Assembly (NCBI RefSeq): GCF_057098645.1
Contig: NZ_CM169472.1
Reading direction: 5' to 3' (one strand)
Length of the DNA: 64,000 nt
In this document: one piece after another, positions 5,014 to 51,511 of the stretch
How positions within the stretch are numbered: the stretch's first letter is position 1
Layout: each line of letters opens with the position of its first letter
Position numbers and translations under genes: made by a program
Notes under the pieces: model-generated
The model's database searches: none
What the model saw: only the letters and a program-made list of their open reading frames with translations
What the model was told of the DNA's origin: nothing

Positions 5014-5370
5014 ATGACCATTTCGGAGTTGCTACAATATTGCATGGCAAAACCAGGCGCAGAACAGAGCGTGCATAACGACTGGAAAGCGACGCAGATC
5101 AAAGTGGAAGATGTACTGTTTGCGATGGTGAAAGAAGTAGAAAATCGCCCAGCTGTTTCGCTGAAAACCAGCCCGGAGCTGGCGGAGCTGCTACGTCAGC
5201 AGCACAGCGATGTGCGTCCAAGCCGCCATCTGAATAAAGCGCACTGGAGCACCGTGTATCTCGACGGTTCGCTGCCAGATTCGCAAATCTATTATCTGGT
5301 GGATGCGTCTTATCAGCAGGCGGTGAATTTACTGCCGGAAGAAAAACGTAAATTGCTGGTGCAACTCTGA
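5014..5370 (+). CDS. yjbR: Uncharacterised protein YjbR
   Basis: 118-aa ORF immediately after yjbQ (4-bp gap), same order as K-12. Confidence 0.85.
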   Translation: MTISELLQYCMAKPGAEQSVHNDWKATQIKVEDVLFAMVKEVENRPAVSLKTSPELAELLRQQHSDVRPSRHLNKAHWSTVYLDGSLPDSQIYYLVDASYQQAVNLLPEEKRKLLVQL

Positions 5371-5378
5371 AAGGAAAA

Positions 5379-5397
5379 GGCCGCTCAGAAAGCGGCC
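5379..5397. terminator. Bidirectional hairpin between convergent yjbR and uvrA
   Basis: ggccgct-cagaa-agcggcc stem-loop flanked by A-run upstream and T-rich downstream, between two convergent genes. Confidence 0.5.
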
Positions 5398-5404
5398 TTA
5401 ACGA

Positions 5405-8227
5405 TTACAGCATCGGCTTAAGGAAGCGTGCCGTGTGTGATGCTTCGCACTCCGCGACGGTTTCTGGTGTACCGGAGACGAGGATCTCGCCGCCGCCACT
5501 GCCGCCTTCCGGACCCAGGTCGACAATCCAGTCAGCAGTTTTGATCACGTCGAGATTGTGCTCAATCACCACGATGGTATTGCCCTGATCGCGCAGTTTA
5601 TGCAGCACGTCGAGCAGTTGCTGAATATCGGCGAAGTGCAGACCGGTGGTCGGCTCGTCGAGAATATACAGCGTCTGCCCGGTGCCGCGTTTTGACAGCT
5701 CACGCGCCAGCTTCACGCGCTGGGCTTCACCACCAGAAAGTGTGGTTGCGGACTGCCCCAGGCGAATGTACGTCAGACCAACGTCCATCAACGTTTGCAG
5801 CTTACGCGCCAGAGCTGGCACCGCATCAAAGAACTCACGCGCCTCTTCGATGGTCATATCCAGCACTTCGTGGATGGTTTTGCCTTTGTACTTAATTTCC
5901 AGCGTTTCACGGTTATAGCGTTTACCTTTACACTGGTCGCACGGTACGTAAATGTCCGGCAGGAAGTGCATCTCCACTTTGATCACGCCGTCGCCCTGAC
6001 AGGCTTCGCAGCGTCCGCCACGGACGTTAAAGCTGAAACGTCCCGGCGTATAGCCGCGCGCACGGGATTCCGGTACGCCCGCAAACAGTTCGCGCACAGG
6101 AGTAAACACGCCGGTATAGGTCGCCGGGTTAGAACGCGGAGTACGACCAATTGGGCTTTGGTCGATATCGATCACTTTATCGAAATGCTCCAGTCCCTGA
6201 ATATCGCGATACGGTGCCGGTTCGGCGATGGTCGCACCATTCAACTGGCGTTGGGCAATCGGGAACAGTGTGTCGTTAATCAGTGTCGATTTACCGGAAC
6301 CTGAAACCCCTGTGATGCAGGTAAACAGACCAACTGGCAGCGTTAGCGTCACGTCTTTCAGGTTATTACCGCGTGCACCAGTCAGCTTCAGCACTTTTTC
6401 CGGATTCGCCGGAACGCGTTTCTTCGGCACTTCAATCTTGCGTTTACCGCTCATGTACTGCCCGGTCAACGACTCCGGCACCGCCATAATCGCTTCCAGC
6501 GGACCTTCCGCGACCACTTCACCGCCATGTACACCTGCACCAGGACCGATATCGATCACATGATCAGCGGCGCGAATCGCGTCTTCGTCGTGCTCCACCA
6601 CAATCACGGTATTACCGAGATCGCGCAGATGGATAAGTGTACCCAACAGGCGCTCGTTATCGCGCTGGTGCAGGCCGATAGACGGCTCGTCCAGTACATA
6701 CATAACACCAACCAGGCCCGCACCAATCTGGCTCGCCAGACGGATACGCTGGGCTTCACCGCCAGAAAGCGTTTCTGCCGAGCGGGAAAGTGTCAGGTAA
6801 TTCAGGCCGACGTTAACGAGGAATTTCAAACGATCGCCGATCTCTTTAAGAATTTTTTCCGCAATCTTCGCCCGCTGACCTGCGAGTTTGAGATTGTTGA
6901 AGAATTCCATCGCATGACCAATGCTCATGTCGGAGATGGCGGGCAGCGGCGTATTCTCGACATACACGTGGCGCGCTTCCCGACGCAGACGCGTCCCTTC
7001 GCAGCTGGCACACGGACGATTACTGATAAACTTGGCTAATTCTTCGCGTACCGCGCTGGATTCCGTCTCTTTATAACGGCGCTCCATATTGTGCAGCACG
7101 CCTTCGAACGGATGACGACGAATGGAGGTATCGCCACGATCGTTCATGTATTTGAATTCAATGTTTTCTTTGCCAGAACCGTACAACACCACTTTATGCA
7201 CGTTCGCGCTCAGGCTGCCCCACGGCGCTTCGACGTCGAACTTATAGTGATCTGCCAGCGATTTCAGCATCTGAAAATAATAGAAGTTGCGGCGATCCCA
7301 GCCACGGATCGCACCACCTGCCAGCGACAGTTCCGGATTCTGGATCACGCGGTCAGGATCGAAATATTGCTGTACGCCAAGGCCGTCGCAGGTCGGGCAG
7401 GCCCCCGCCGGGTTGTTAAACGAAAACAGTCGCGGCTCCAGCTCGCGCATACTGTAGCCGCAAATTGGGCAGGCGAAGTTGGCGGAAAACAGCAGCTCTT
7501 CCGCTTTCGGGTCGTCCATATCCGCCACTACTGCGGTACCACCGGAAAGCTCCAGCGCGGTTTCAAACGACTCGGCCAGACGTTGGGTAAGATCGTCACG
7601 CACCTTGAAGCGATCAACCACCACTTCAATAGTGTGTTTCTTTTGCAGTTCCAGTTTCGGCGGATCGGAAAGATCGCAGACTTCGCCATCAATACGAGCA
7701 CGGATGTAACCCTGGCTTGCCAGGTTCTCCAGCGTTTTGGTGTGTTCGCCTTTGCGCTCTTTAATGATTGGCGCGAGCAGCATCAGACGCTTGCCTTCCG
7801 GCTGCGACAGCACGTTATCCACCATCTGGCTGACGGTTTGCGCCGCCAGCGGGACGTCGTGGTCCGGACAGCGCGGTTCGCCGACGCGGGCGAACAACAA
7901 ACGCAAATAGTCGTGGATTTCGGTGATTGTCCCCACCGTAGAACGCGGGTTATGAGACGTCGATTTCTGCTCAATTGAGATGGCAGGAGAAAGCCCCTCA
8001 ATATGATCGACGTCCGGCTTTTCCATCAGTGACAGAAACTGCCGCGCGTAGGCGGAAAGGGATTCAACGTAACGGCGCTGCCCTTCGGCATATAAGGTGT
8101 CGAAAGCGAGCGAGGATTTGCCAGAACCCGAAAGCCCGGTCACGACAATGAGCTTGTCGCGGGGGATAACGAGGTTGATGTTTTTGAGATTATGGGTGCG
8201 GGCGCCCCGAACTTCGATCTTATCCAT
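5405..8227 (-). CDS. uvrA: Excinuclease ABC subunit A
   Basis: 940-aa ORF with two ABC ATPase modules ([10 protein letters not shown] and [10 protein letters not shown] Walker A, two LSGGE signatures) and zinc-finger cysteine clusters. Confidence 0.97.
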
Positions 8228-8312
8228 TCACCTTTCCCGGATTAAACGCTTTTTTGCCCGGTGGCATGGTGCTACCGGCGATCACAAACGGTTAATTATG
8301 ACACAAATTGAC

Positions 8313-8328
8313 CTGAATGAATATACAG
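8313..8328. promoter_or_regulatory. LexA (SOS) box in the divergent uvrA-ssb control region
   Basis: CTGAATGAATATACAG on the plus strand (CTGTATATTCATTCAG on the minus strand), fitting the CTGT-N8-ACAG SOS consensus, located between uvrA and ssb. Confidence 0.8.
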
Positions 8329-8481
8329 TATTGGAATGCATTACCCGGAGTGTTGTGTAACAATGTCTGGCCAGGTTTGTTTCCCGGAACCGAGGTCACA
8401 ACATAGTAAAAGCGCTATTGGTAATGGTACAATCGCGCGTTTACACTTATTCAGAACGATTTTTTTTCAGGAGACACGAAC

Positions 8482-9018
8482 ATGGCCAGCAGAGGCGTAA
8501 ACAAGGTTATTCTCGTTGGTAATCTGGGTCAGGACCCGGAAGTACGCTACATGCCAAATGGTGGCGCTGTTGCCAACATTACGCTGGCTACTTCCGAATC
8601 CTGGCGTGATAAAGCGACCGGCGAGATGAAAGAGCAGACTGAATGGCACCGCGTTGTGCTGTTCGGCAAACTGGCAGAAGTAGCCAGCGAATATCTGCGT
8701 AAAGGTTCTCAGGTTTATATCGAAGGTCAGCTGCGTACCCGTAAATGGACCGATCAATCCGGTCAGGATCGCTACACCACAGAAGTCGTGGTGAACGTTG
8801 GCGGTACCATGCAGATGCTGGGTGGTCGTCAGGGTGGTGGTGCTCCTGCAGGTGGCAATATCGGTGGTGGTCAGCCGCAGGGCGGTTGGGGTCAGCCTCA
8901 GCAGCCGCAGGGTGGCAATCAGTTCAGCGGCGGCGCGCAGTCTCGCCCGCAGCAGTCCGCTCCGGCAGCGCCGTCTAACGAGCCGCCGATGGACTTTGAT
9001 GACGATATTCCGTTCTGA
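8482..9018 (+). CDS. ssb: Single-stranded DNA-binding protein
   Basis: 178-aa [47 protein letters not shown]..., Gly/Gln-rich linker and acidic C-terminal tail DFDDDIPF. Confidence 0.97.
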
Positions 9019-9086
9019 TTTGTCATTAAAACAATAGGTTATATTGTTTTAAGGTGGATGATTAAAGCATCTGCCAGCCATAAAAA

Positions 9087-9111
9087 AGAAGCCTCCGTTA
9101 TGGAGGCTTCT
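9087..9111. terminator. Hairpin terminator between convergent ssb and yjcB
   Basis: agaagcctcc-gttat-ggaggcttct stem-loop; A-run on the upstream side gives a U-tract for the minus-strand gene. Confidence 0.5.
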
Positions 9112-9116
9112 ACGTA

Positions 9117-9398
9117 TCAGGTCAAAATCATTGGCCATTGTGGCGGTGTCTGATTCATCTCTTCTATCATCACCGACTCGATGTTGTGCCAGATGGCGGT
9201 GATGTCCGCCATTGTGATGCCAAGCAACCCCATTGCGAACCAGCAGGCGGAAACCACGCCCAGACCGCTGCTGATCACTGCAAGCCCGACATAATCAGAC
9301 CGACGAAAACGGATGTTGAGTGTGCTGGCCAGAAACATCATTACGGCACTAAGAAGTTGCCAGCGAAGAAGAACCACGCCAGTGGTGAGGGTAGCCAT
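9117..9398 (-). CDS. yjcB: Small inner-membrane protein YjcB
   Basis: ORF-track entry 9117-9497 trimmed to the internal ATG (MATLTTGVVLLRW...), 93 aa, two hydrophobic segments. Confidence 0.7.
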   Translation of the reverse strand: MATLTTGVVLLRWQLLSAVMMFLASTLNIRFRRSDYVGLAVISSGLGVVSACWFAMGLLGITMADITAIWHNIESVMIEEMNQTPPQWPMILT

Positions 9399-9824
9399 CA
9401 AACAATTCCTCTGAAAAGAGCCGATGCCCTGGACAGCGCGGCGTTGTTCACGGGAGGCGTGGTACACTCTGGCTATCGCGGGGCTTGCAGAACACAAAAA
9501 TGAAACACTCTGTTTGTTTCATTAATTTTGTGAACTATATCACAATTGATTGTTTGTTAGCCAGATTAGGTCGTGACTTTTATTGCTGTACAGATTATGT
9601 GGTTTTTCTGTGGCATTAAGGGCATATCTTCCCGCCGCCCTGCATTCCTGAAGAAAATTAATTTGAATATCAATGAATTATTTTCATCCAGGTGACGATT
9701 AAAAAGGTATCAATTTCAAATCAGGCAAAAGTGCTATTTATACCGTAAGATTTATCTAAAGACGTCGGTAGCCAGGGTTTCACCTTGCAATGGCCGGGTA
9801 TAAACAGGCAGGAAATTGATAGCA

Positions 9825-38513: not shown

Positions 38514-40499
38514 TTAATTTGGGGTTACGATATTCACCCACAAATCGAAATTATCCAGACAGGCGATAATTTCTTCCAGTTTCGCGCCATTGCCAATAAT
38601 TTTGGCTTTCTTCGCTTTTACCAGATCCGCCATTTTGGCTTGTCCGGTCAGCACGGCGTGCAGATCTTCACGGCTGATGTAGAAAGAGGCGTCAGCTTGC
38701 GGTTGCAGTGTTTTACGGTAGTTAAGCACGCTATCGTTCAGCGTCAGGTTGAGGTTATCGCCGTTGCTCATATTGAAGTTCAGGCTGATATTTTTACCCG
38801 CAGCTTTCGCGCTATCGAGGCGAACGGCCATAAAGTCGAACAGCATTTCGACCGACATTCCGCGAATGGTGTCCGGGGAACCGGTGGTGCCGTGGCTGAA
38901 CTTATGCACCCCTTCGCGCAGCTCTTTCGCGCCGGTCAGGTAGAAACCGCGCCATGTGGCGGACTCGGCCTGATAGCCCAGCTGTTCAAAGTTATTCGCT
39001 TGCAGATTCTTCGCGACCTGGTCACCCGGGTTGGCGGCAATCACCTGTTTCAGCAGTTCTGCCGACCAGCGGTAATCACCTTGCTTGTTCGCTTCTTGCG
39101 CCAGGTTGATGACACGGGCAGAACCGCCCAGCGCTTTCACGTAACGTTTGCCCATCTCTACCTGACCATACGGATGCAGGTTAGCCGGGTTACCGTCGTA
39201 ATAGCCAAGATAGAAGTTATACACCGCGCGGGCGTTGTGGCTGACAGAACCGTAATAGCCGCGGCTGGCCCAGTTATTGGCAAGCGCAGGCGGCAGCTTA
39301 ATCATGTCGCCGATTTCATTCATGGTGTAGCCCTGGTTCGCCAGGTGCAGGGTCTGGTCGTGAATATACTTGATGGTATCGCGATATTTACCAATATAAT
39401 CATTGATATGCTTATTGCCCCAGACCGGCCAGGTGTGCGGCATAAACAGCACTTCCGCGTCGTTACCCCACATATCCAGCGTTTCGTTCAGGTACTCGGT
39501 CCACTTGCTGGTATCGCGGGTTTTCGCGCCGCGCAGAGTGTAGAAGTTGTGCAGAGTATGCGTGGCGTTCTCGGCGGTACACAGGGCTTTCAGGGCCGGA
39601 ATATAGAAGTGCATTTCGGCTGGCGCTTCGCTACCTGGGGTCATCAGGAAGTCAAACTCCAGGCCGTCGATAATCATCTTCTCGCCAGTTCTGACGATAG
39701 TTTTAGTCGGTGCAATAATGCTCGGGTCGCCCGTTGCCAGCGTCACGCCAAGGCCATTACCCACGTTGCCTTGCGCGTTGTGCGGCAGTAACAGACCGTA
39801 AGAGTAGAGCGCACGGCGGCTCATGATGTTACCCGCCAGCACGTTTTCGCTGATGGCTTCGTCCATAAAGCCAGCAGGGGCAATCACCTGAACTTTGCCG
39901 GATTTAACATCGGCTTCAGAGATAATGCCTTTCACGCCACCATAGTGGTCGGTGTGGCTGTGAGTGTAGATAACGGCAACAATCGGTTTTTGCGGACGAT
40001 GCTGGAAGTAAAGGTCAAGTGCGGCTTTTGCTGCAGGTGGCGTCACCAGTGGGTCAATAACAATAATGCCTTTCTCGCCCTCAACGAACGTAATGTTAGA
40101 GATATCCTGGCCGCGCACCTGATACATTTTATCGGTGACTTTGAACAGGCCAGAAATACCGTTGATTTGCGACTGACGCCACAGGCTGGGGTTTACGGTT
40201 TCCGGCGCTGCGGCATTAATATCAAATTTGTAATCGTCCGCGCGGTAGTAAACTTTACCGTTCGCATCACGCAGAATACCTTCATCCAGCAGCGGGGCGA
40301 TAAATCCACGCTGGGCATCGTCAAAATCCTGACGATCGCTAAACGGTAATGATTTGGCGTAATTCTGATTAACCTGTTGGGTATATTGAGTGGCGGCTTT
40401 CGCTTCCTCTTTCGCGTAAGCGGTATTTACCATCATGCCGCTGGCGGCAGTTAACGCAATAACAATCCGGCTCAAACGGAATAACTGAGAGTTATTCAT
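38514..40499 (-). CDS. yjcS: Alkyl/aryl-sulfatase-like metallo-beta-lactamase-fold protein
   Basis: 661 aa from MNNSQLFRL...; signal peptide; MBL motif [11 protein letters not shown]; SdsA1-like length. Confidence 0.85.
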
Positions 40500-40789
40500 A
40501 TAAATCTCCATTTATCATTTATGTCGTAAATATGTAATCCATGCAAAATACGTCATTTAAAGCTGGCGTTATCATAATTGGGAAATTGCGACTTTAATAA
40601 GTGGAAGTGTGAGCGGAACGATCCATTTTATTAGGCATTTGTGCTGAAGAGGGAAAATTACGGCATATTTATTACTATCATCAATAATGTGACCTGACTT
40701 ATATTTTTATTATTTATATTACTTTCAGCTTTCACTTCGACAAGAAGTACGCACAATGATTAATCAGATGAATGATGCGGAGTGTAACC

Positions 40790-41497
40790 ATGAAACCCGT
40801 CGTGCTGGTGGTGGATGATGACACGGCTATCTGCGCACTGTTGCAGGACGTGTTAAGTGAACATGTCTTTACGGTTTCAGTCTGCCATACCGGACAGGAG
40901 GCCATATTGCGTATTGAGGGCGATCCTGACATTGCGCTGGTGGTGCTGGATATGATGCTACCCGATACCAACGGCCTGAGGGTATTGCAGCAAATCCAGA
41001 AACTGCGTCCGACATTGCCGGTGGTGATGTTGACCGGCATGGGCAGTGAGTCTGATGTGGTGGTCGGGCTGGAAATGGGCGCGGATGATTACATCTGCAA
41101 ACCGTTCACCCCGCGGGTGGTGGTCGCACGACTGAAAGCGGTGTTGCGACGGGTTGGTGCGCTGGCGGTTAATGACGAGAAAAGCGCCGGGCTGTCATTC
41201 AATGGCTGGTATCTCGATACCATGCGCTGCCAGTTGCACAATCCGCTTCAGCAACATGTCGAGTTAACTCAGGGCGAATATGGCTTGTTACTGGCACTGG
41301 CGCAAAACGCGCGTCGGGTATTGAGCCGCGAGCAGTTGCTGGCGTTCACCCACAGCGACAGCGTGGAGGTGTTTGATCGCACCATCGACGTATTAATCAT
41401 GCGCTTACGACGCAAAATCGAACTCAACCCGCATCAGCCGATGTTGATTAAAACTCTGCGCGGTCTGGGGTATGTCTTCGCTGCCGACGTGCATTAA
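40790..41497 (+). CDS. OmpR/PhoB-family response regulator (receiver plus winged-helix DNA-binding domain)
   Basis: MKPVVLVVDDD..., phospho-acceptor Asp in VVLDMMLPD, conserved Lys in YICKPF, C-terminal LIKTLRGLGYVF winged helix. Start trimmed to the ATG preceded by GGAG. Confidence 0.85.
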   Translation: MKPVVLVVDDDTAICALLQDVLSEHVFTVSVCHTGQEAILRIEGDPDIALVVLDMMLPDTNGLRVLQQIQKLRPTLPVVMLTGMGSESDVVVGLEMGADDYICKPFTPRVVVARLKAVLRRVGALAVNDEKSAGLSFNGWYLDTMRCQLHNPLQQHVELTQGEYGLLLALAQNARRVLSREQLLAFTHSDSVEVFDRTIDVLIMRLRRKIELNPHQPMLIKTLRGLGYVFAADVH

Positions 41498-42495
41498 TCC
41501 GACATTTCTGTTTGCAGCTCTTCCAGCGTTTTCGCCCCGTCGATGGCATTGGCGCATAACAGGCTTGCCCGCGCGCAGGCGTGTGCCAGTTTGATGCTCT
41601 CGGTAAGCGTCCAGCGTTCATGGCAGCCATATAAAAATCCGGCACAAAATGCATCGCCCGCGCCGACGCTGCCGATAATTTCCCGTTGTTCTAACTTTTG
41701 CGAAGGGATCCACACGCTGCCCTGTTCTGGGGTCTCTCCCCACGCCCCTTCCGGGCAGTGGATCACCACCCGCTGGCGCACGCCCGCATCTAACAGTTCA
41801 CGCGCGGCGGCAGCAATATGCGCGATATGCGGTTCGCCGTTGGGTAACCGAATTTCCAGCCCGCTAAACTCCCCGGCCTCCAGTTCGTTAATTACCAGAT
41901 AATCCAGATGGCGCAACGCGGGCAGCACCAGCGGCTGATAACGCGGATCGCCCTTACGGGAGACCAGGTCGAGTGAGGTTTCAAAGCCAGTATCACGCAT
42001 TTGCGCCAGCAGGCGTGCGCTACGGGTGCCGTAAACATCGTCCGGCATATCCAGGCTGTCGAGCAACAGTAAATAGCCGAGATGGAAAATCTTCATGGTG
42101 TTATCGAGCTGATCGAACGCCGGAAGATCCAAAAGTCTGTTTGCACCCGGCGAATGGAAAAACGTCCGCTGCCCGCTTGGGTCTGTCATCACCTGCGACA
42201 TCGACGTCGGGGCAAAGGTAGTGCGCTGCACATGCTGACGATTGACGTGATATTGCTCAAGCATCGCCATGATGTAATCGCCGTCGCTGTCCTGACCGAT
42301 TAGCCCAACCGCCTGTAACGGCAGCCCGGTGCGCATTTTCGCCAGCGTCAGCAGGACGTTAAGCGGCGCACCGCCGGTGGAGCGTTCGCTGTGGGTGATC
42401 TCCGCCAGCCAGCCGCGCTCTGGCCACTGGATAATCTGATGGACGTGGTCAACCAACATATTGCCTGCGGCGATAATCCCTTTACGCTCCATCAT
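41494..42495 (-). CDS. PfkB-family carbohydrate kinase
   Basis: 333 aa; ribokinase-fold signature near the C-terminus (GSVGAGDAFCAGFLYG) and N-terminal GG dipeptide region. Confidence 0.8.
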   Translation of the reverse strand: MMERKGIIAAGNMLVDHVHQIIQWPERGWLAEITHSERSTGGAPLNVLLTLAKMRTGLPLQAVGLIGQDSDGDYIMAMLEQYHVNRQHVQRTTFAPTSMSQVMTDPSGQRTFFHSPGANRLLDLPAFDQLDNTMKIFHLGYLLLLDSLDMPDDVYGTRSARLLAQMRDTGFETSLDLVSRKGDPRYQPLVLPALRHLDYLVINELEAGEFSGLEIRLPNGEPHIAHIAAAARELLDAGVRQRVVIHCPEGAWGETPEQGSVWIPSQKLEQREIIGSVGAGDAFCAGFLYGCHERWTLTESIKLAHACARASLLCANAIDGAKTLEELQTEMSD

Positions 42496-43352
42496 GCCTG
42501 CCCCGCACTGCCAAAAATACGCATCTGTTGTGCAACCGTATCGCTGATGGCGGCTTCCACTGCCAGCAGTAACTCGGCAAACTCGTCATACATCGGCTGA
42601 CGGTGCGCCATTCGGGCCTCAACGGCAGCCAGCGCCGCTTGCGACATGCCAGTGTAGAAATTGATTTTGTGGATACCCAGTTCGATGGCGCGGCGGAAAT
42701 CGGCATCGCTAATCCCTGAGCCGCCGTGTAATACCAGCGGGATAGCAGCCTGCTGGCGGATAGCGTCGAGGCGCGGGAAATCGAGTTTCGGTTCGCCGCG
42801 ATATTTGCCGTGTGCATTGCCAATCGCCACGGCCAACGCGTCAATGCCGGTACGGTCGACAAAATCACGCGCCAGTTGCGGATCGGTAAACAGGGATTCA
42901 TCGGCATGACCATAGAGCGCACCGCCTTCGTCGCTACCCACCGCGCCCAGTTCAGCTTCTACCGATACGCCAACGGCATGGCACATTTTCACCACTTCCC
43001 GCGTCTGGCGGACATTTTCTTCATACCCCAGCGTGGAGCCATCAAACATTACCGAGCTGAATCCCAGCCGCAACGCTTGCACCACCGATTCAAAATGCAG
43101 TCCGTGATCGAGATTTAACACCACCGGAATGGCATGACGCGCCGCTTCAAATTTCACTGTCTCGACCAGGGAATCCAGCGAGATATATTTAAAATGTACT
43201 TCGGCAATGTTGATAATAAAGGGCGAACGTTCTTGTCTGGCAGCAGCAAACAAGGCGCGTAAAAAGTGCGAGTCCAGCACATTAAACGCACCTAACGAAT
43301 AGTGATGTTCGCGGGCATGTGCCAGCCCTTCAGCGAGACAAATCAATGGCAT
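42492..43352 (-). CDS. Class II (metal-dependent) ketose-phosphate aldolase, FbaA/GatY/KbaY family
   Basis: 286 aa; N-terminal MPLI...LAHAREHHYSLGAFNV, LNLDHG and LHGGSG motifs typical of class II TIM-barrel aldolases. Confidence 0.8.
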   Translation of the reverse strand: MPLICLAEGLAHAREHHYSLGAFNVLDSHFLRALFAAARQERSPFIINIAEVHFKYISLDSLVETVKFEAARHAIPVVLNLDHGLHFESVVQALRLGFSSVMFDGSTLGYEENVRQTREVVKMCHAVGVSVEAELGAVGSDEGGALYGHADESLFTDPQLARDFVDRTGIDALAVAIGNAHGKYRGEPKLDFPRLDAIRQQAAIPLVLHGGSGISDADFRRAIELGIHKINFYTGMSQAALAAVEARMAHRQPMYDEFAELLLAVEAAISDTVAQQMRIFGSAGQA

Positions 43353-43366
43353 AACGTTATCCTTAT

Positions 43367-44050
43367 TCAGCGGAACTGGCGGTATTCGTTACACAATACC
43401 AACTGTGCAGGTTCGTCTTCGTCAATCAGGTTGTAGCGGTCCAGTGGCTGTAAAAAGTGGTTATCGTGGTCGTCGTCATTGACAGAAGAGACTTCGCCAA
43501 CCAGAACATCGCCAAAGCCGGTTTCCGCCCAAAAGCTGTGATACAGGCCGGGCGGCAGGCAGATACTTTCGCCGGGAGACAGGCGCAACTGAGTGCCTGC
43601 AGTATGTTTCTGGCGGCAGCCGTCTATCACCACCGTAATGTCACTATCAGCCGTTTGCTCGTTACTATCGGCATTCCACAGTTCAACAATTAAATTACCG
43701 CCGCCGCGATTGATAATGTCCTCACGCTTACGCCAGTGAAAATGCATTGGCGTGACCTGCGCATCGCGCACATGCATGATCTTCTCGGCGTAACATTTCA
43801 CATACGGCATTCCTTTTGCTGAGCCGTTACGTAGGGTAAACAGCGTCAGCCCGTGTGCTGCAAAGTTGTTGCGACCAAAAGCGGTAACATCCCAGCCGAG
43901 TTTAAGATCAAAAACCTCCTCCCACGCGGCGGTGTCGAGCTGCTGCCATTGAGCAGGCGAGAAACTGGCAAAGGGCGGCAGATGTACGTCATGTTGCGAA
44001 AAGAATTGCCGTGTATGGCCGAGAATGTCGTTTATAGCGGAGCGTTTCAT
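43367..44050 (-). CDS. Cupin-fold sugar isomerase, D-lyxose/D-mannose isomerase-like
   Basis: 227 aa; cupin metal-binding region (TPMHFHWRKREDIINRGGG ... PGLYHSFW); resembles the D-lyxose isomerase family as I recall it from a pathogenic E. coli enzyme. Confidence 0.65.
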   Translation of the reverse strand: MKRSAINDILGHTRQFFSQHDVHLPPFASFSPAQWQQLDTAAWEEVFDLKLGWDVTAFGRNNFAAHGLTLFTLRNGSAKGMPYVKCYAEKIMHVRDAQVTPMHFHWRKREDIINRGGGNLIVELWNADSNEQTADSDITVVIDGCRQKHTAGTQLRLSPGESICLPPGLYHSFWAETGFGDVLVGEVSSVNDDDHDNHFLQPLDRYNLIDEDEPAQLVLCNEYRQFR

Positions 44051-44104
44051 CGAAAGCGTTCTCCTTAGCGGTGACCGGGCAGCTGCGCCGCCCGGCGCGT
44101 GGAC

Positions 44105-45046
44105 TTATTTCACCGTCCAGCCTTTGTAATTGCCGACGTTGTTTTTATCGATCATCGTCACCGGGATCAGCACCGGCTCTTTCGGCGCAGGTTTGCCCTG
44201 CAAAATGTCGTAGCCAATTTCCACCGCTTTCGCTGCCATCACCTGGGGATCTTGCGCCGGAGTAGCGACAAACAACGAGTTCTCACGCTTGAGCGCCTCT
44301 TCGGCGTCCGGGCTTCCGTCCACACCGACAATAAAGAACTCGTTACGTTGCGCCTGTTTTGCTGCCAGATCGGCACCGATTGCGGTGGGATCGTTAATCG
44401 CAAATACGCCGTCGATCTTCGGATTTGCCGCCAGCAGTCCCGTCATTACCTCCAGCCCGCCTTCACGACTGCCTTTCGCGTTCTGGTTGTCAGAGAGCAC
44501 TTTGATGTCAGGATGGCGTTTAAATTCAGTCTGGCATCCTTCGACGCGGTTTTGCACGGCGGATACCGGCGGGCCGTTGATGATCACCACATTGCCTTTG
44601 CCTTTCAGGCGATCGGTGATGTATTTACAGGCCATTTCGCCCGCCTGGGTGTTATCGGAGGTGATGGTGGCATCAGCACCTTCTGCCGCTACGTCAACCG
44701 CGACGACTACGATCCCGGCATCTTTCGCCCGTTTCACCGCCGGGCCGATCCCTTTTGAATCGGCAGCGTTGAGGATAATCATATCGACGTTAGCGGCGAT
44801 AAAGTTGTCTATCTGCGACACCTGCTGACCCAGATCGTAGCCGCTGGAAACCAGCGTCACTTTGACGTTATCGCCTGCCAGTTTGCGTGCTTCCAGCTCC
44901 GCGCCTTTGGTGATCTGCACGAAGAACGGGTTCGCCAGATCGCCCACCGTTACGCCTATCGATTTCAGTTCTTTCGCTTGGGCGAACGGTGCTGCGGCCA
45001 GCAGCGCGCCTGCACAGAGCGCGGTCACTAAGGGCTTCAATCTCAT
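44105..45046 (-). CDS. Periplasmic sugar-binding protein of an ABC transporter (RbsB/AlsB-like)
   Basis: 313 aa, signal peptide ending AQA, type I periplasmic binding fold (GVTVGDLANPFF..., GIVVVAVD). Confidence 0.85.
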   Translation of the reverse strand: MRLKPLVTALCAGALLAAAPFAQAKELKSIGVTVGDLANPFFVQITKGAELEARKLAGDNVKVTLVSSGYDLGQQVSQIDNFIAANVDMIILNAADSKGIGPAVKRAKDAGIVVVAVDVAAEGADATITSDNTQAGEMACKYITDRLKGKGNVVIINGPPVSAVQNRVEGCQTEFKRHPDIKVLSDNQNAKGSREGGLEVMTGLLAANPKIDGVFAINDPTAIGADLAAKQAQRNEFFIVGVDGSPDAEEALKRENSLFVATPAQDPQVMAAKAVEIGYDILQGKPAPKEPVLIPVTMIDKNNVGNYKGWTVK

Positions 45047-45064
45047 GCTGTATTCCTCATGTGT

Positions 45065-46039
45065 TTATGCACTTTGATGGTGTCGGGTACGGTATTTGTC
45101 GATCAGCACCGCAATGATGATCACCGCCCCTTTGATCACCAGTTGCCAGAAGTAAGAGACGCCCATTAAGGTCATGCCATTGTTGAGCGTGGCGATAATT
45201 AGCGCGCCGACCAGCGTGCCGGTGATGGTGCCGATGCCGCCGACAAAACTGGTGCCGCCGAGGATCACCGCTGCAATGGCATCCAGTTCGTAACCCATGC
45301 CTAAGTTGCCGTTGGCGCTGTACAGCCGTGAGGCGCTCATAATCCCGCCAAGCCCAGAAAGCAGGCCGCTCATGCCATAAACAAACAGCAGCACCAGCCA
45401 GACCTTAATGCCGGTAAGACGCGCCGCCTGCATATTGCCGCCGACGGCGTAGATATGAACGCCAAGCGTGGTGCGGCGTAGAATAAACCAGCACACCACG
45501 ATCACCGCCAGCGCAATCACCACCAGCCATGGGACCGGCCCGAGATAGTTGTTGCCTATCCACTCGAAATTAATGTTGGAGTTGATAACCGTGGTGCCGT
45601 CCGCCAGCAGATACGCCGCCCCGCGCAGCGCCGTATAGGTGCCAAGCGTAACGATAAACGGTGGCAATCCGGCAAAGGCCACCAGCGCGCCGTTGAACAG
45701 CCCCAGCAGCAGGCCGAGCATCAGCGCTGCCGGGATCGACAGCATGGCGAACTCAGGGCTAAGGGAGACGACCATCGCCGCCACCGCTGTGGTGCCGAGG
45801 ATCGAACCCACGGAAAGATCGATCCCGCCGGTCAAAATGATGAAGGTCATCCCCGCGGCCAGAACAATGTTGATCGATGCCTGGCGGGTAATATTCAGCA
45901 GGTTGCTTTCGGTAAAAAAGTTTGGCGCGATAAAGCCAAATACCGCCACGATCAGAATCAAAATGGGCAAGATGCCGACCGTTTGCATCAGATCGCTCAT
46001 CAGCATTTTTTTGGCAGAGGTTTTTGCAGAGGTCGTCAT
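45065..46039 (-). CDS. ABC sugar transporter permease (RbsC-like)
   Basis: 324-aa polytopic membrane protein; 4-bp overlap with the upstream ATPase gene. Confidence 0.85.
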
Positions 46040-47556
46040 GAGGTTACCGCCTGGGAATGGGCGTCGTTGACGCCAGTCGCTAAGGTCATAATGTTTTCCT
46101 GGGTGATGTTTTTGCCGTTTAACTCACCGGCAATGCTGCCTTCGCGCATCACATAGACGCGATCGCTCATTCCCACTATCTCCGGCAGTTCGCTGGAGAT
46201 CATCAGGATCGCCACGCCCTTGCGCGCCATCTCGTTCATGATCCGGTAGATCTCACTTTTGGCGCCAACGTCCACGCCGCGGGTGGGTTCATCGAGCAGT
46301 AAAATGCGCGGGCCAATCGCCACCCAGCGGGAGATCAACAGTTTTTGCTGATTGCCGCCGGAAAGCCCGCCCGCGCGTACCTGGGCATGAGGCACGCGAA
46401 TGTTGAGCAACTTGATGGCGTCATCGGAAATGGTTTGCGCTTTTTTGCGATTGAGCATTCCCCAGCTGGCATCGCGCTCCAGGGTTGCCATGGTGATGTT
46501 TTCGGCTGCTGCCATTTCAAGGAATAAGCCTTGTTCTTTGCGGTTTTCGGTGAGAAAACCAATGCCAAGATCGATGGCTTCGCGCGGGGAGTGGATCACC
46601 ACCGGTTCACCATCGACTTCAATCATTCCGCCTGTCGCTTTCCGCACGCCGAAGATCAACTGCGCCAGTTCGGAACGTCCGGCTCCTACCAGCCCGGCGA
46701 GGCCGACAATTTCGCCGGAACGCACCAGCAGGCTACTCGGCTGGACTTTGCCACCGTCGGTCAGGTGGTGAACATTCAGGCGGGCTTTGCCGAGCGGGAT
46801 ATCGCGCTCTTTATTGAACAGATCGCTCAGTGGCCTGCCGACCATCATCCGCACCAGCTCCCCGGCATTGAGGTTATCGCGGGTCAGGCTGCCAACGTAT
46901 TGCCCGTCGCGCAGCACGCTGACGCGATCGGAAAGCTCATACACTTCCGCCATACGGTGGCTGATGTAGATAATCGCCATCCCTTCATCGCGCAGCCGCA
47001 TAATCAGTTCAAACAGACGGTGAGTTTCACGGGAGGAGAGGGCAGCGGTGGGTTCGTCCATCACCAGAATGCGGCTGTTGCGATGCAGCGCGCGGGCGAT
47101 TTCGACCTGCTGTTGCTCGGCAATGGTCAGCATCATGACTTTATCGCTGGCGTTAAACTGCGCGCCGAGGCGGTCGATCACTCTTTGCGCCTGCACCAGC
47201 ATCTCTTTACGCTGCACCAGCCCGCCGTGGGAAAGCTCGCTACCGAGAAAAATATTTTCTGCCACCGTCAAATTGGGTGCCAGCTGCATCTCCTGATAAA
47301 TCAGCGTAATACCGGCACTTAAGGCATCTTTTGGCGTGCGAATGTGAAAGGGCTTGCCGTCTATGAGGATCTCGCCGCTGGTGGCGGTATACGCCCCCGC
47401 CAGCACCTTCATCAGCGTGCTTTTTCCCGCGCCGTTTTCCCCCATCAGGGCATGGATCTCGCCAGGGTAGACCGTCAAATCCACCCCTTTGAGCGCATAA
47501 AATTTGCCGAAGGCTTTGGCAATATTGCGCATCTCCAGAACTGGCCTGCTGTTCAT
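46036..47556 (-). CDS. ABC sugar transporter ATPase, tandem nucleotide-binding domains (RbsA-like)
   Basis: Two Walker A sites ([20 protein letters not shown]) and two signature motifs (LSSRE-like, LSGGNQQK); start trimmed to [16 protein letters not shown] with GGAG RBS. Confidence 0.85.
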
Positions 47557-47669
47557 GGTGGACTCCTGCGAGGTTGTCGATATCAGCACTCCATCACAGG
47601 AAAGTAAATGCAAAATGTCAGAAGCCGTTCATATTTGTCATATTGCGATTTTTCTTCACGGAGCGTGAT

Positions 47670-49934
47670 ATGGCGCACCCCGGACGTCACTTTTTTGCCA
47701 GCGCGCGCGGGCGATTGCTGCTTTTGAATTTGCTGGTGGTGGCGGTGACGTTGATGGTCAGCGGCGTGGCGGTAATGGGCTTTCGTCATGCCAGCCAGAT
47801 GCAGGAGCTGGTGCAGCAGCAAACGGTGGATGATATGACCGGCAGCCTGAATCTGGCGCGCGACACGGCAAACGTGGCAACGGCGGCGGTGCGATTGTCG
47901 CAGGTGGTGGGAGCGCTGGAATATAAAGGCGAAGCCGAGCGGTTGCAGGAGACACAGCGGGCATTAAAAAGCTCGCTTGCACAACTGGCGAACGCGCCTT
48001 TAGCGCAGCAGGAAGCCGGGCTGGTGACGCGCATCATCACGCGTAGCAACGAACTGCAAACCAGCGTCGGCGGTATGCTGGAGCGCGGGCAAAGGCGGCA
48101 TCTGGAGCGCAACGCGCTGTTAAGTTCGCTGTATCAAAACTTAAGTTATCTGCGGCATCTGCAAAAAGTCACTCACGCGCAAGATGATATTTTGCTTAAC
48201 GAGATGAACCGACTAATTGTTGCCGCTATTGCCACCCCCGCGCCGCAGGCGATTATTCATCAACTGGTCGGGGTAATGTCTGCGTTGCCGACCCACAGCG
48301 ATACGCCATTGGTTAATACGTTACTCAATGATTTCAATGATGAAATGCGTAAACTCGCGCCGCTTTCTGCCGCTCTGGAGCAAAGCGATCTGGCAATCAG
48401 CTGGTATATGTTTCACATCAAAGCGCTGGTGGCGATCCTCAATGGCGACATCAACCGTTACGCCGAACAGGTGGCGACGCTCTCCGGTCAGCGTGTGGCG
48501 CAAAGTTACCAGGATTTGCGCTCCGGCGAGAGGGTGATCATGATTTTCGCCCTGTTAGCGGTGGTGATCACCGCGTTTGCCGGCTGGTATATCTATCGCA
48601 ACCTCGGCACTAACCTGACGGCGATTTCCCGCGCCATGAGCCGCCTGGCGCACGGCGAAGCGGACGTCACTTTTCCGGCGTTACAGCGGCGTGATGAGTT
48701 GGGTGAACTGGCGCGCGCCTTTAACGTTTTTGCCCGCAATACCGAGTCACTCGAACGAACCTCACGGCTGCTAAAAGAGAAGACCACGCAGATGGAGATT
48801 GCCCAAACTGAGCGGCAGGGGTTGGAAGAGGCGCTATTACACAGCCAGAAACTGAAAGCGGTCGGGCAACTGACGGGCGGGCTGGCCCATGATTTTAATA
48901 ATCTGCTGGCGGTGATTATTGGCAGCCTGGAGCTGGTGAATCCGGACTCGCCAGACGCGCCGCGAATACAGCGGGCGCTGCAAGCTGCCGAACGTGGGGC
49001 GCTACTGACACAACGACTGCTGGCGTTTTCCCGCAAGCAGTCCTTACATCCGCAAGCCGTTGAACTGAAAACATTGCTGGAAGAGTTAAGCGAATTAATG
49101 CGCCACTCCTTACCGGCAACGCTGGCGCTGGAGATTGAAGCGCAGTCTCCGGCGTGGCCCGCGTGGATTGACATCAGCCAACTGGAAAATGCCATCATCA
49201 ACCTGGTGATGAACGCCCGTGACGCGATGGAAGGGCAGACGGGAATCATCAAAATTCGTACCTGGAATCAGCGCGTTACTCGCAGCAGTGGGCAGCGTCA
49301 GGACATGGTGGCACTGGAGGTCATCGATCATGGCAGCGGTATGTCGCAGGCGGTGAAAAGCCAGGTATTTGAGCCATTCTTTACCACCAAACAGACGGGC
49401 AGCGGCAGCGGGCTGGGGTTGTCGATGGTCTATGGTTTTGTGCGCCAGTCCGGTGGGCGCGTTGAAATTGAAAGCGCGCCGGGGCAGGGGACAACGGTCA
49501 GATTACAGCTTCCCCGCGCGCTGACGGCGGCGAAAAACCTATCGCCAGCGGCAGTAGAACAGGCTTCTGTCAGCGGCGATAAACTGGTGTTAGTGCTGGA
49601 AGATGAAGCCGCGGTGCGCCAGACCATCTGCGAACAGTTGCACCTGCTGGGCTATTTGACGCTGGAAGCAAGCAGCGGCGAACAGGCGCTGGATCTGCTG
49701 GCGGCATCAGCAGAAATCGATATTTTTATCAGCGATTTAATGCTCCCCGGCGGCATGAGCGGCGCAGAAGTGGTCAATGCGGCCCGCAAACTTTACCCGC
49801 ACCTGACGCTGCTACTCATCAGCGGTCAGGATTTACGCCCCAGCCATAACCCCGCGCTGCCAGACGTGGCGCTGTTGCGCAAACCCTTTACCCGTGCGCA
49901 GTTGGCGCAGGCGCTGGGGCAAATTGAGGGATGA
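47670..49934 (+). CDS. Hybrid sensor histidine kinase (periplasmic sensor, HAMP, HisKA, HATPase, C-terminal receiver)
   Basis: Start trimmed to ATG 47670 (MAHPGRHFF...); two TM segments flanking a roughly 270-aa helical periplasmic domain; H-box GGLAHDFNNLL; ATP lid DHGSGM, GSGLGLS; receiver with Asp in IFISDLMLPG. No HPt domain. Confidence 0.85.
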   Translation: MAHPGRHFFASARGRLLLLNLLVVAVTLMVSGVAVMGFRHASQMQELVQQQTVDDMTGSLNLARDTANVATAAVRLSQVVGALEYKGEAERLQETQRALKSSLAQLANAPLAQQEAGLVTRIITRSNELQTSVGGMLERGQRRHLERNALLSSLYQNLSYLRHLQKVTHAQDDILLNEMNRLIVAAIATPAPQAIIHQLVGVMSALPTHSDTPLVNTLLNDFNDEMRKLAPLSAALEQSDLAISWYMFHIKALVAILNGDINRYAEQVATLSGQRVAQSYQDLRSGERVIMIFALLAVVITAFAGWYIYRNLGTNLTAISRAMSRLAHGEADVTFPALQRRDELGELARAFNVFARNTESLERTSRLLKEKTTQMEIAQTERQGLEEALLHSQKLKAVGQLTGGLAHDFNNLLAVIIGSLELVNPDSPDAPRIQRALQAAERGALLTQRLLAFSRKQSLHPQAVELKTLLEELSELMRHSLPATLALEIEAQSPAWPAWIDISQLENAIINLVMNARDAMEGQTGIIKIRTWNQRVTRSSGQRQDMVALEVIDHGSGMSQAVKSQVFEPFFTTKQTGSGSGLGLSMVYGFVRQSGGRVEIESAPGQGTTVRLQLPRALTAAKNLSPAAVEQASVSGDKLVLVLEDEAAVRQTICEQLHLLGYLTLEASSGEQALDLLAASAEIDIFISDLMLPGGMSGAEVVNAARKLYPHLTLLLISGQDLRPSHNPALPDVALLRKPFTRAQLAQALGQIEG

Positions 49935-50346
49935 TTTTCAGAATTTATCAAGAGGCCTGAAGCAAATGTGCTGCTATTGTGAGCAATTCTGTTCTGAATG
50001 GGATATAAAAGGAATTATGCCAGTACTGACAAGAGGCGATTCACATATGATCGTGATGCCAACCACCTATAGCGATTTCAGTGTTTGTATTAGACACTGA
50101 ACAAGGGGCATTTTGGCCTTATGATGGCACGAAAGTGATCTACGATGGCGGTTGCATTCCGGAAGAGCGTATCTGGAGTATTTCACCGGATCAAAAATGT
50201 CATGGCATTGTGCTGGTGGCGGAAAATAAACAGCGAGCTAACCAGCTAATGGAAGAGTCTGCGCCTTACCGAATTTGAGATTACTCCGCTACTCCGGTCA
50301 TTCACACTCAACTAACGTTAAGCCAGTCCATCGCAGAGACTGGCTT

Positions 50347-50676
50347 ATGAAACCTTACTCCACGCTTTTTCTTTTCAGCCTGCTCACGCTGACCACCGTA
50401 CCGGCCCAGGCCGATATTATCGACGACACCATTGGCAATATTCAGCAGGCGATTAACGATGCTTATAACCCTGACCGTGGGCGAGATTATGAAGATTCGC
50501 GCGACGACGGCTGGCAGCGTGAAGTGAGCGACGATCGGCGCAGACAATATGACGACCGCCGTCGCCAGTTTGAAGATCGTCGCAGGCAACTGGACGATCG
50601 CCAGCACCAGCTTGATCAGGAGCGTCGGCAGCTAGAAGATGAAGAGCGGAGAATGGAAGATGAGTATGGGCAATGA
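50347..50676 (+). CDS. yjdP: Secreted low-complexity Arg/Asp/Gln-repeat protein
   Basis: 109 aa from MKPYSTLFLFSLLTLTTVPAQA; repeated DDRRRQ-type units; upstream of phnP as in K-12. Confidence 0.75.
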   Translation: MKPYSTLFLFSLLTLTTVPAQADIIDDTIGNIQQAINDAYNPDRGRDYEDSRDDGWQREVSDDRRRQYDDRRRQFEDRRRQLDDRQHQLDQERRQLEDEERRMEDEYGQ

Positions 50677-50752: not shown

Positions 50753-51511
50753 TCACGCCACCCCAATCTCCATCCCATCAAACCCCGCCTCAAACCCCGA
50801 CGGCAGTGTGTTTTCCATCAGCCATGCATCAAACTGATGGCTGATGTGCGTCAGAATCACGCGCGGCGAGCGGATAACCTGATTCAGCGCAAGCACGGTA
50901 TTTAAATCACAGTGATTACGCGGTGCATCCTCGCACGGCGGGTGGCTGCAATCAATCACCATTACCTGCGGCTGATTATTGCGTAAAAATTTCAGCGTTT
51001 TTTCCGGCAAGCCAGCGGTGTCAGACAGCCACGCCACCCGGCTGTGCGCCGTTTCCAGCAGATAACCGAAGGTCAGTTTTGAGTGGTTGAGCGGCAGGGG
51101 CGTGACCTGTAACCCCTGCAAATCAAACACCACAAACGGTTCCACCGTGTGGCTGAAATCAAGCAGGTCCGGATGTTTAAACAGATCGTCGCAGCCCTGT
51201 TCATCCGGCGGGCCGTAGACCGGGATCGGATCGCCCACGCCCCAGCGCAGCGGAAACAGCCCCTGGACGTGATCCATATGGTAGTGCGTCAGCAAAAACT
51301 GCTGGAACGATCCTGGCGACCAGCGAGCGGTGAGATCGTGCAGCCCGGCGTCGATCAGGGTGATCGCCTCGTTAAACTTCACTACGCCGCTGCACGGTTG
51401 GCGGCGATAGTGCGGTGAGCGCCGCGCTCTGGCGCAGGCCGCACACTCGCAGCCCCATGCCGGAACGCCCTGTGCGCCGCCGGTGCCGGTGAGCGTGAGG
51501 GTCAGGCTCAT
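50753..51511 (-). CDS. phnP: Phosphonate-pathway cyclic phosphodiesterase (MBL fold)
   Basis: 252 aa, HYHMDH metallo-beta-lactamase motif. Confidence 0.9.

Follow-up and report, generated by a model that had tools for sequence, protein, structure and literature searches.

O-island 167 (OI-167) of enterohaemorrhagic Escherichia coli (EHEC) O157:H7, an eight-gene island with the order lmvR-lmuKAIZYX-lmvK located between the core genes yjcS and yjdP (PMC10128022), is the closest described system to the locus analysed here, which is the yjcS-yjdP interval (positions 40512-50346) of a 64,000-nucleotide (nt) stretch of contig NZ_CM169472.1 (assembly GCF_057098645.1), referred to below as the window. 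The island was characterised genetically, biochemically and structurally between 2010 and 2023; it is the subject of the mBio 2023 paper by Yang et al. (PMC10128022), and the names used there and in the second island paper (PMC9860305) are linked by a review that covers both (PMC11644481). Its location, content, function and regulation are already known, and the present analysis adds no more than evidence of deep conservation and synteny, of a tandem with the als operon in other genera, of a decayed ninth gene, of a three-allele structure in E. coli and of seemingly non-EHEC carriers.

Within the island the six lmu genes form one operon, which like lmvR is induced by mannose and lyxose in a manner dependent on lmvK/lmvR, and deletion of lmvR, lmvK, lmuI or lmuZYX impairs growth on D-lyxose (PMC10128022). 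The island also supported slow mannose growth of a manA mutant in which LmvR was overexpressed, LmuK showed fructokinase activity, and LmuXYZ is about 60% identical to a Herbaspirillum mannose importer (PMC10128022). The corresponding mannose-isomerase route of Herbaspirillum seropedicae (HSERO_RS03635-45), a likeness taken from PMC10128022, likewise brings in free mannose through an ATP-binding cassette (ABC) importer, isomerises it to fructose and then uses a fructokinase, and differs in that the E. coli module adds a dedicated aldolase and a two-component regulator. Phosphotransfer from kinase to regulator and binding to the ler promoter have been reported (PMC9860305), and activation of LEE (locus of enterocyte effacement) has been published for strain EDL933 and one O145:H28 strain (PMC9860305, PMC10128022).

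In E. coli K-12 the same interval carries alsK-alsE-alsC-alsA-alsB-alsR-rpiB, which resembles the island in its yjcS-yjdP slot and in combining a CUT2 ABC importer with cytoplasmic enzymes for a rare aldose. The als operon differs in its RpiR-type repressor, ROK kinase, epimerase and RpiB, whereas the module is controlled by a two-component system and its enzymes are of the cupin isomerase, PfkB kinase and class II aldolase families, and homologues are confined to the ABC parts, which were 29–41% identical to AlsB, AlsC and AlsA by tblastn. Homologues of AlsK, AlsE, AlsR and RpiB were absent from the module-bearing loci in the same search. A sequence-only reading of the window had proposed a module without als or rpiB in the als slot, with the same importer-plus-enzymes logic, other enzyme chemistry and a two-component regulator, and the comparison with K-12 supported each of these points.

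The open reading frame (ORF) list and the RefSeq annotation of record NZ_CP027362, which is 100% identical to the window, gave the following layout of eight genes and a 204-nt GNAT remnant with their flanks:

38514-40499, minus strand: yjcS, alkyl sulfatase, left core flank (annotation; DNA 98.8% identical to K-12 yjcS)
40790-41497, plus strand: lmvR, OmpR-type response regulator, named in PMC10128022 and PMC9860305 (annotation, family models; 100% amino acid identity to the O157:H7 copy)
41494-42495, minus strand: lmuK, PfkB-family sugar kinase (family models)
42492-43352, minus strand: lmuA, class II ketose-bisphosphate aldolase (572.8 bits with NCBIfam NF005284, cut-off 406)
43367-44050, minus strand: lmuI, cupin isomerase (438 bits with NCBIfam NF051472, cut-off 350)
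44105-45046, minus strand: lmuZ, CUT2-family periplasmic sugar-binding protein (family models; PDB 4RWE, E 4e-167)
45065-46039, minus strand: lmuY, ABC permease (annotation, family models)
46036-47556, minus strand: lmuX, ABC ATPase with tandem nucleotide-binding domains, first gene of the operon (annotation, family models, PMC10128022)
47670-49934, plus strand: lmvK, hybrid histidine kinase (Pfam; structure model with a predicted local distance difference test score, pLDDT, of 77.5; PMC10128022)
50075-50278, plus strand: 3' remnant of a GNAT N-acetyltransferase gene, annotated as a pseudogene (annotation)
50347-50676, plus strand: yjdP, right core flank, whose first approximately 11 codons are a diverged allele (annotation, alignments)
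50753-51511, minus strand: phnP (annotation)

The window was 100% identical to E. coli 95-3192 and O145:H28 genomes, and the segment was 99.2% identical over 9110 nt to O157:H7 SS17 and matched 388 E. coli genomes at an identity of at least 99%. The response regulator, the kinase-aldolase-isomerase-binding protein-permease-ATPase block and the histidine kinase follow one another between yjcS and yjdP as in the O157:H7 copy, with proteins that are 99–100% identical, and the two copies agree in all eight genes, their order and orientation, the chromosomal site and the LmvR operator ATATGA-N3-ATATGA in the lmuX promoter. They differ at the right end, where the O145:H28 window keeps the 204-nt GNAT remnant, about 340 nt between lmvK and yjdP, and a kinase with its own stop codon (after ...QIEG), while O157:H7 lacks that stretch and its kinase (...QEN) stops in a conserved element 69 nt before yjdP. 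We are highly confident that the segment is the O145:H28 allele of OI-167, a conclusion held jointly with the account of pathway, regulation and ancestral locus given below. Within that account we lean towards reading OI-167 as the remnant of an ancient enterobacterial locus, comprising lmv/lmu and als as neighbours, and not as an EHEC-specific acquired pathogenicity island; LmvK/LmvR would have been a sugar regulator first, with control of LEE as a late co-option limited to a few lineages.

The eight genes between yjcS and yjdP-phnP and the families assigned to their products by the sequence-only reading were borne out by the ORFs, the RefSeq annotation, NCBIfam and Pfam; the same reading missed the GNAT remnant, the true breakpoints outside the gene borders and the identity with OI-167. 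The six minus-strand genes form a single block from kinase through ATPase. Both aldolase and isomerase exceeded curated equivalog cut-offs in NCBIfam, and LmuI matched PDB 3KMH/3MPB (E 4e-160, residues 1–227). The importer fits CUT2, with a type I binding protein, one permease of about 320 residues and an ATPase in which two nucleotide-binding domains are fused; models of RbsB/RbsC/RbsA, AraG and XylG matched its proteins, and the PDB matches were labelled CUT2. LmvR fits the OmpR/PhoB family, with a receiver, a winged-helix domain and an operator that is a direct repeat, and full-length matches to OmpR, VirG, PhoB and TorR all remained under the equivalog cut-offs.

To survey the module beyond E. 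coli, 100,044 species genomes were scanned with the isomerase, which gave 79 loci that were then searched by tblastn with all module and flank proteins. All eight genes occurred in the same order in 53 of 68 enterobacterial loci, from genera such as Citrobacter, Enterobacter, Kosakonia, Lelliottia, Leclercia, Pseudescherichia, Phytobacter, Buttiauxella, Cedecea and Serratia, and including one record labelled Yersinia pestis. In 35 of the 68 loci lmvK was followed by (GNAT-)yjdP-phnP-phnO-phnN as in E. coli, and in Citrobacter sp. wls619 the regulator side continued into yjcS-ytcA-mdtN. Eight loci, each from a different species and including Enterobacter soli, Kosakonia oryziphila, Phytobacter ursingii, Huaxiibacter and a Lelliottia species, had alsA-alsC-alsE-alsK directly against the 3' end of lmvK, so that alsK abuts lmvK and the layout is that of K-12 plus the module between yjcS and alsK. 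Because the module occupies the same site beside yjdP-phnP in 35 loci and is directly adjoined by als in eight, als and the module can be interpreted as old neighbours. Protein identity between E. coli and Citrobacter was 79–97% for the module and 80–83% for phnN, phnO, phnP and yjcS. The suggestion of a replacement hotspot for rare-sugar modules does not fit this wider synteny, in which the module sits at the same site across Enterobacteriaceae and beside als in eight species. One Pluralibacter genome carries lmuI-lmuA-lmuK without transporter or two-component genes between yjcS and rpiB-yjdP (locus L035, 3846-12537), with a 1478-residue ORF (5153-9589) in between.

Among 5,426 complete E. 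coli genomes the module was found in 410 (approximately 7.6%) at a coverage of at least 80%, once in each and always on the chromosome; the 421 places recorded for the module in these genomes were likewise all chromosomal. A chimeric query composed of 1.5 kb of the module and 1.5 kb of alsK-alsE matched 3,794 places in 3,792 genomes, with at most two places per genome. The als operon was present in about 3,380 genomes (about 62%) and neither als nor the module in about 1,630 (about 30%), and the mutual exclusion of the two that the sequence-only reading had raised was almost perfect in E. coli. Genomes with neither had a decayed rpiB remnant alone between yjcS and yjdP. This remnant is a 318-nt ORF of the RpiB family (locus L003, 3253-3570) that has lost an internal piece and whose 5' part is rearranged.

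Most of the 410 carriers belonged to O157:H7. In a systematic sample of 58 full-length rows taken down the match ranking, 10 were strains from chicken, pig, pigeon, guinea fowl, cattle, humans and fresh water, with genomes of 4.6–5.2 Mb and alleles down to 96.5% identity. The carriers from animals and fresh water appear to be non-EHEC. Divergence of the module between E. coli carriers was 0.8–3.6%, similar to that of yjcS (1.5–2.5%).

The borders of the interval were located by alignment of the alleles, which defined two features:

40662-40735, no strand assigned: left junction, AT-rich, diverged but alignable among the module, als and short alleles, followed by unique DNA (three-way alignment)
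50272-50295, plus strand: conserved element upstream of yjdP with the consensus TTGAGATTCCTCCGCTAC (about 45 loci compared, alignments)

On the left, the match to K-12 extends beyond the yjcS start by 150 nt, as far as about 40662, and on the right it returns only some 35 nt into the yjdP gene, around 50380. A complete GNAT gene of 633 nt stands between lmvK and yjdP in bovine strain XJ34 (locus L005, 11808-12440) and in Escherichia sp. E1V33, and the gene is also intact in several loci of Citrobacter, Lelliottia, Enterobacter and Leclercia. The O145:H28 window has lost the 5' two-thirds of this gene, and it is gone altogether from O157:H7, O55:H7, PT62 and the majority of the other carriers; the GNAT acetyltransferase is a decayed ninth gene of the module, and it is mentioned in neither island paper (PMC10128022, PMC9860305). 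In carriers without it the kinase frame meets a stop exactly 69 nt before yjdP, the position at which rpiB stops in K-12 and GNAT in XJ34, because the stop codon falls inside the conserved TTGAGATTCCTCCGCTAC. This element lay approximately 50–70 nt upstream of yjdP in every genus examined, whether rpiB, GNAT or the kinase gene precedes it. It delimits the variable slot on the right and may be the promoter of yjdP or an operator. The 69-nt spacer and the first approximately 11 codons of yjdP (signal peptide; 50347-50380) differ strongly between alleles. For the codons the difference is between module- and als-bearing alleles, which therefore puts a recombination breakpoint inside yjdP, and such divergence would be the expected trace of flank recombination between diverged lineages.

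The spacer itself is unusually variable in sequence and constant in length within E. coli. In the window a hairpin, GCCAGTC-N9-GACTGGC (50322-50344), stands directly ahead of the start codon of yjdP; many genera have similar GCCAG...CTGGC pairs, which are lacking from the K-12 and O157:H7 spacers. In the pigeon strain PT62 and in Escherichia sp. E1V33 most of the phn operon beside the module, phnP included, was deleted, so that phnO directly follows yjdP, in PT62 with yjdN next (loci L006, 12102-12650, and L008, 2340-3335).

ARAGORN found no tRNA in the segment, no Rfam family was found there, a repeat search detected no flanking direct or inverted repeats, and no integrase or insertion sequence is annotated in the identical record. 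The sequence-only reading had likewise seen no integrase, insertion sequence or tRNA at the borders. An origin by mobile element was rejected on these empty searches together with the chromosomal position of all 421 E. coli places. At both borders there is homologous, though diverged, flank sequence. The allelic forms in E. coli resemble the outcome of alternative deletions or of an exchange of alleles by way of these homologous flanks, and judged from sequence comparison an old, host-diverged and differentially lost locus fits better than a foreign island or a module-swapping hotspot. The module would thus be an old chromosomal locus of Enterobacteriaceae and a neighbour of the als operon, of which E. 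coli lineages keep als, the module or neither; deletion would have produced the alleles, and homologous recombination via the flanks, as opposed to a mobile element, would have exchanged them.

The published view holds that OI-167 is EHEC-specific, having been acquired horizontally by O55:H7/O157:H7 and independently by O145:H28 with displacement of als. It derives from presence only in O157:H7, O55:H7 and O145 of the collections studied, according to which the system is restricted to EHEC and O55:H7 (PMC9860305, PMC10128022), and it agrees with the preponderance of O157:H7 among carriers, with an elevated G+C content and with the differing right junctions and 69-nt spacers of O145 and O157, as expected of two events. 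We consider this view unlikely, as it has to accommodate the diverged alleles of the chicken, pig, pigeon, guinea-fowl, bovine and freshwater carriers, the lack of any mobility signature, the tandem with als in eight species, and the presence of the module at this locus in Citrobacter, Enterobacter, Kosakonia, Leclercia, Buttiauxella, Cedecea and others, with divergence equal to that of flanking core genes. Exchange by flank recombination within Escherichia is possible and would reconcile both views.

Alignment of the ATPase-kinase intergenic region from related loci revealed a near-invariant block, TAAATGCAAAATGTCAG..GC.GTTCATATTTGTCATA, positioned 88–95 nt from the lmuX start in 54 distinct regions from more than 12 genera, ranging from Escherichia to Serratia, Yersinia and Winslowiella, while the remaining lmuX-lmvK spacer varied from 133 to 486 nt. 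In the window the block resolves into the following features:

47586-47643, minus strand: lmuX promoter (sequence; conserved block)
47629-47643, minus strand: LmvR operator ATATGA-CAA-ATATGA, read on the window strand as its reverse complement TCATATTTGTCATAT
47616-47621, minus strand: -35-like CTGACA (TGTCAG on the plus strand), putative placement
47593-47598, minus strand: -10-like TGTGAT (ATCACA on the plus strand), putative placement

The operator-type sequence had one exact occurrence in the whole window. DNase I footprinting placed LmvR at -41 to -62 of the lmuX promoter, over a region that includes ATATGA-N3-ATATGA (PMC10128022); the intergenic alignment is an independent check of the site. 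With a 17-nt spacer the -35/-10 hexamers would put the operator at about -43 to -57, in agreement with the footprint. An arrangement of three tor-like decamers with 10-bp spacing was considered and rejected, as the footprinted unit is ATATGA-N3-ATATGA with 9-bp spacing and the other pieces fit the -35/-10 elements better. The operator resembles the TorR box CTGTTCATAT, of which many genera have the exact decamer, and this likeness is consistent with the similarity of LmvR to TorR. In most genera outside Escherichia/Citrobacter an extra conserved piece, AATAGTTAAC...ATCACA, lies between the operator and the lmvK start and may be a second regulatory site for lmvK.

No operator-like site was found upstream of lmvR in an alignment of 63 distinct upstream regions across genera, which contained one conserved motif:

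40688-40693, plus strand: TGTGAC, upstream of lmvR (alignment of the 63 regions)

This motif is possibly a CRP half-site and was kept although the gene neighbouring lmvR differs between genera.

In the regulatory scheme supported by the published work, the hybrid kinase LmvK phosphorylates LmvR, which binds the direct repeat ATATGA-N3-ATATGA about 40–60 nt upstream of the lmuX transcription start and switches the operon on; in EHEC, LmvR also binds the ler promoter and increases type III secretion. The periplasmic domain of LmvK (about 250 residues) was helical in the structure model and had no Pfam match and no sequence match to solved structures in the PDB. Its model superposed with similar scores on the TorT-binding TorS, the XylFII-binding LytS and the direct-binding McpS domain, so the modelled fold does not discriminate between direct ligand binding and LmuZ, which has 4RWE as a close solved relative, acting as co-sensor. 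The locus resembles TorS/TorT/TorR and VirA/ChvE/VirG in its OmpR-family regulator, with TorR and VirG among the best matches, and both of these and LytS/XylFII in encoding a type I periplasmic binding protein alongside; its operator is related to the tor box, and LmvK shares a C-terminal receiver with VirA. LmvK does not conform to the TorS type, as Pfam detected no HPt domain, it scored 137.7 bits against the TorS cut-off of 676.5 and its fold likeness is non-specific; its sensor also sets it apart from TorS, VirA and LytS by having no sequence similarity to any solved structure.

Alternatively, the kinase could be primarily a riboflavin sensor (RbfS), with control of the sugar operon incidental, and riboflavin acting directly on the kinase is one of the two signals disputed in the literature. 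Several observations make this quite improbable. In all genera examined the sugar operon is enclosed by the genes for kinase and regulator, no other non-coding block of the locus is as conserved as the operator with its -35/-10 elements, also in genera without LEE, and mannose/lyxose induction needs lmvK/lmvR (PMC10128022). The ler footprint TCTCACATAATTTATATCATT (PMC9860305) is also a much poorer match to ATATGA-N3-ATATGA, and the periplasmic fold cannot tell direct binding from sensing through a binding protein.

For the pathway controlled by this sugar regulator, LmuXYZ imports an aldose, shown to be D-lyxose and more weakly D-mannose, which LmuI converts to the ketose, D-xylulose or D-fructose; LmuK would then phosphorylate the ketose and LmuA would presumably split the phosphorylated product. 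A xylulose-1-phosphate route for lyxose was set aside, as no literature support for it was found and lmuK and lmuA are unneeded on lyxose (PMC10128022). The natural substrate could instead be another aldose of the same C2/C3 configuration, whose ketose needs a dedicated kinase and aldolase, and its route could involve ketose-1-phosphate cleavage as for YdjH/YdjI or IolC/IolJ, or a tagatose-type bisphosphate. Another natural substrate is conceivable because lmuK and lmuA are dispensable for lyxose growth (PMC10128022) yet are kept with the operon in 53 of 68 loci, because the PDB relatives of LmuA include YdjI and tagatose-bisphosphate aldolases and also fructose-bisphosphate aldolases, and because LmuK is at most a distant relative of the characterised PfkB enzymes, YdjH included; the weak mannose phenotype, which needs LmvR overexpression in a manA mutant (PMC10128022), points the same way. 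The proposal is nonetheless doubtful given the fructokinase activity of LmuK, the likeness of LmuXYZ to the Herbaspirillum mannose importer and the induction of the operon by both lyxose and mannose, and no paper on an alternative substrate was found.

Several points weigh against our overall interpretation of a lyxose/mannose module at an old enterobacterial locus. Its functional part rests on two papers, both with strain EDL933, which disagree on the signal (riboflavin versus mannose/lyxose), and the dispensable lmuK/lmuA together with the weak mannose phenotype speak against a firm assignment of the natural substrate and of the role of kinase and aldolase. The G+C content of the module (0.55–0.58) is above the E. 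coli average and can be read as foreign, with the neighbouring core phn genes at 0.60–0.63. Transfer among Escherichia lineages by flank recombination would also look the same and would explain the two junction types. If OI-167 is the remnant of an ancient locus, most E. coli may have lost the module, some may have lost als and about 30% may have lost both; the observed conservation of the operator from Escherichia to Serratia and Yersinia would reflect the primary role in the sugar operon, the riboflavin response may have been co-opted as well, and the conserved, phenotypically silent kinase/aldolase pair would point to another natural substrate.

Elsewhere in the window, alr (104-1182) is annotated as frameshifted in the identical RefSeq record, and the type III secretion effector gene espX5 (16136-17428) lies between yjcE and actP; the rest, from dnaB to phn, keeps the K-12 gene order. 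In O157:H7 SS17, phnO is annotated as frameshifted (locus L004, 13436-13871).

The added value of this analysis is small and evolutionary. The two island papers argue that the emergence of O157:H7 involved a rare, laterally acquired and EHEC-restricted two-component system. That reading of LmvK/LmvR as a newly acquired virulence regulator is weakened here, as the module and its operator are common and syntenic in Enterobacteriaceae, show normal within-species diversity in E. coli and occur in seemingly non-EHEC carriers, which suggests that control of LEE was grafted onto an old sugar regulon.

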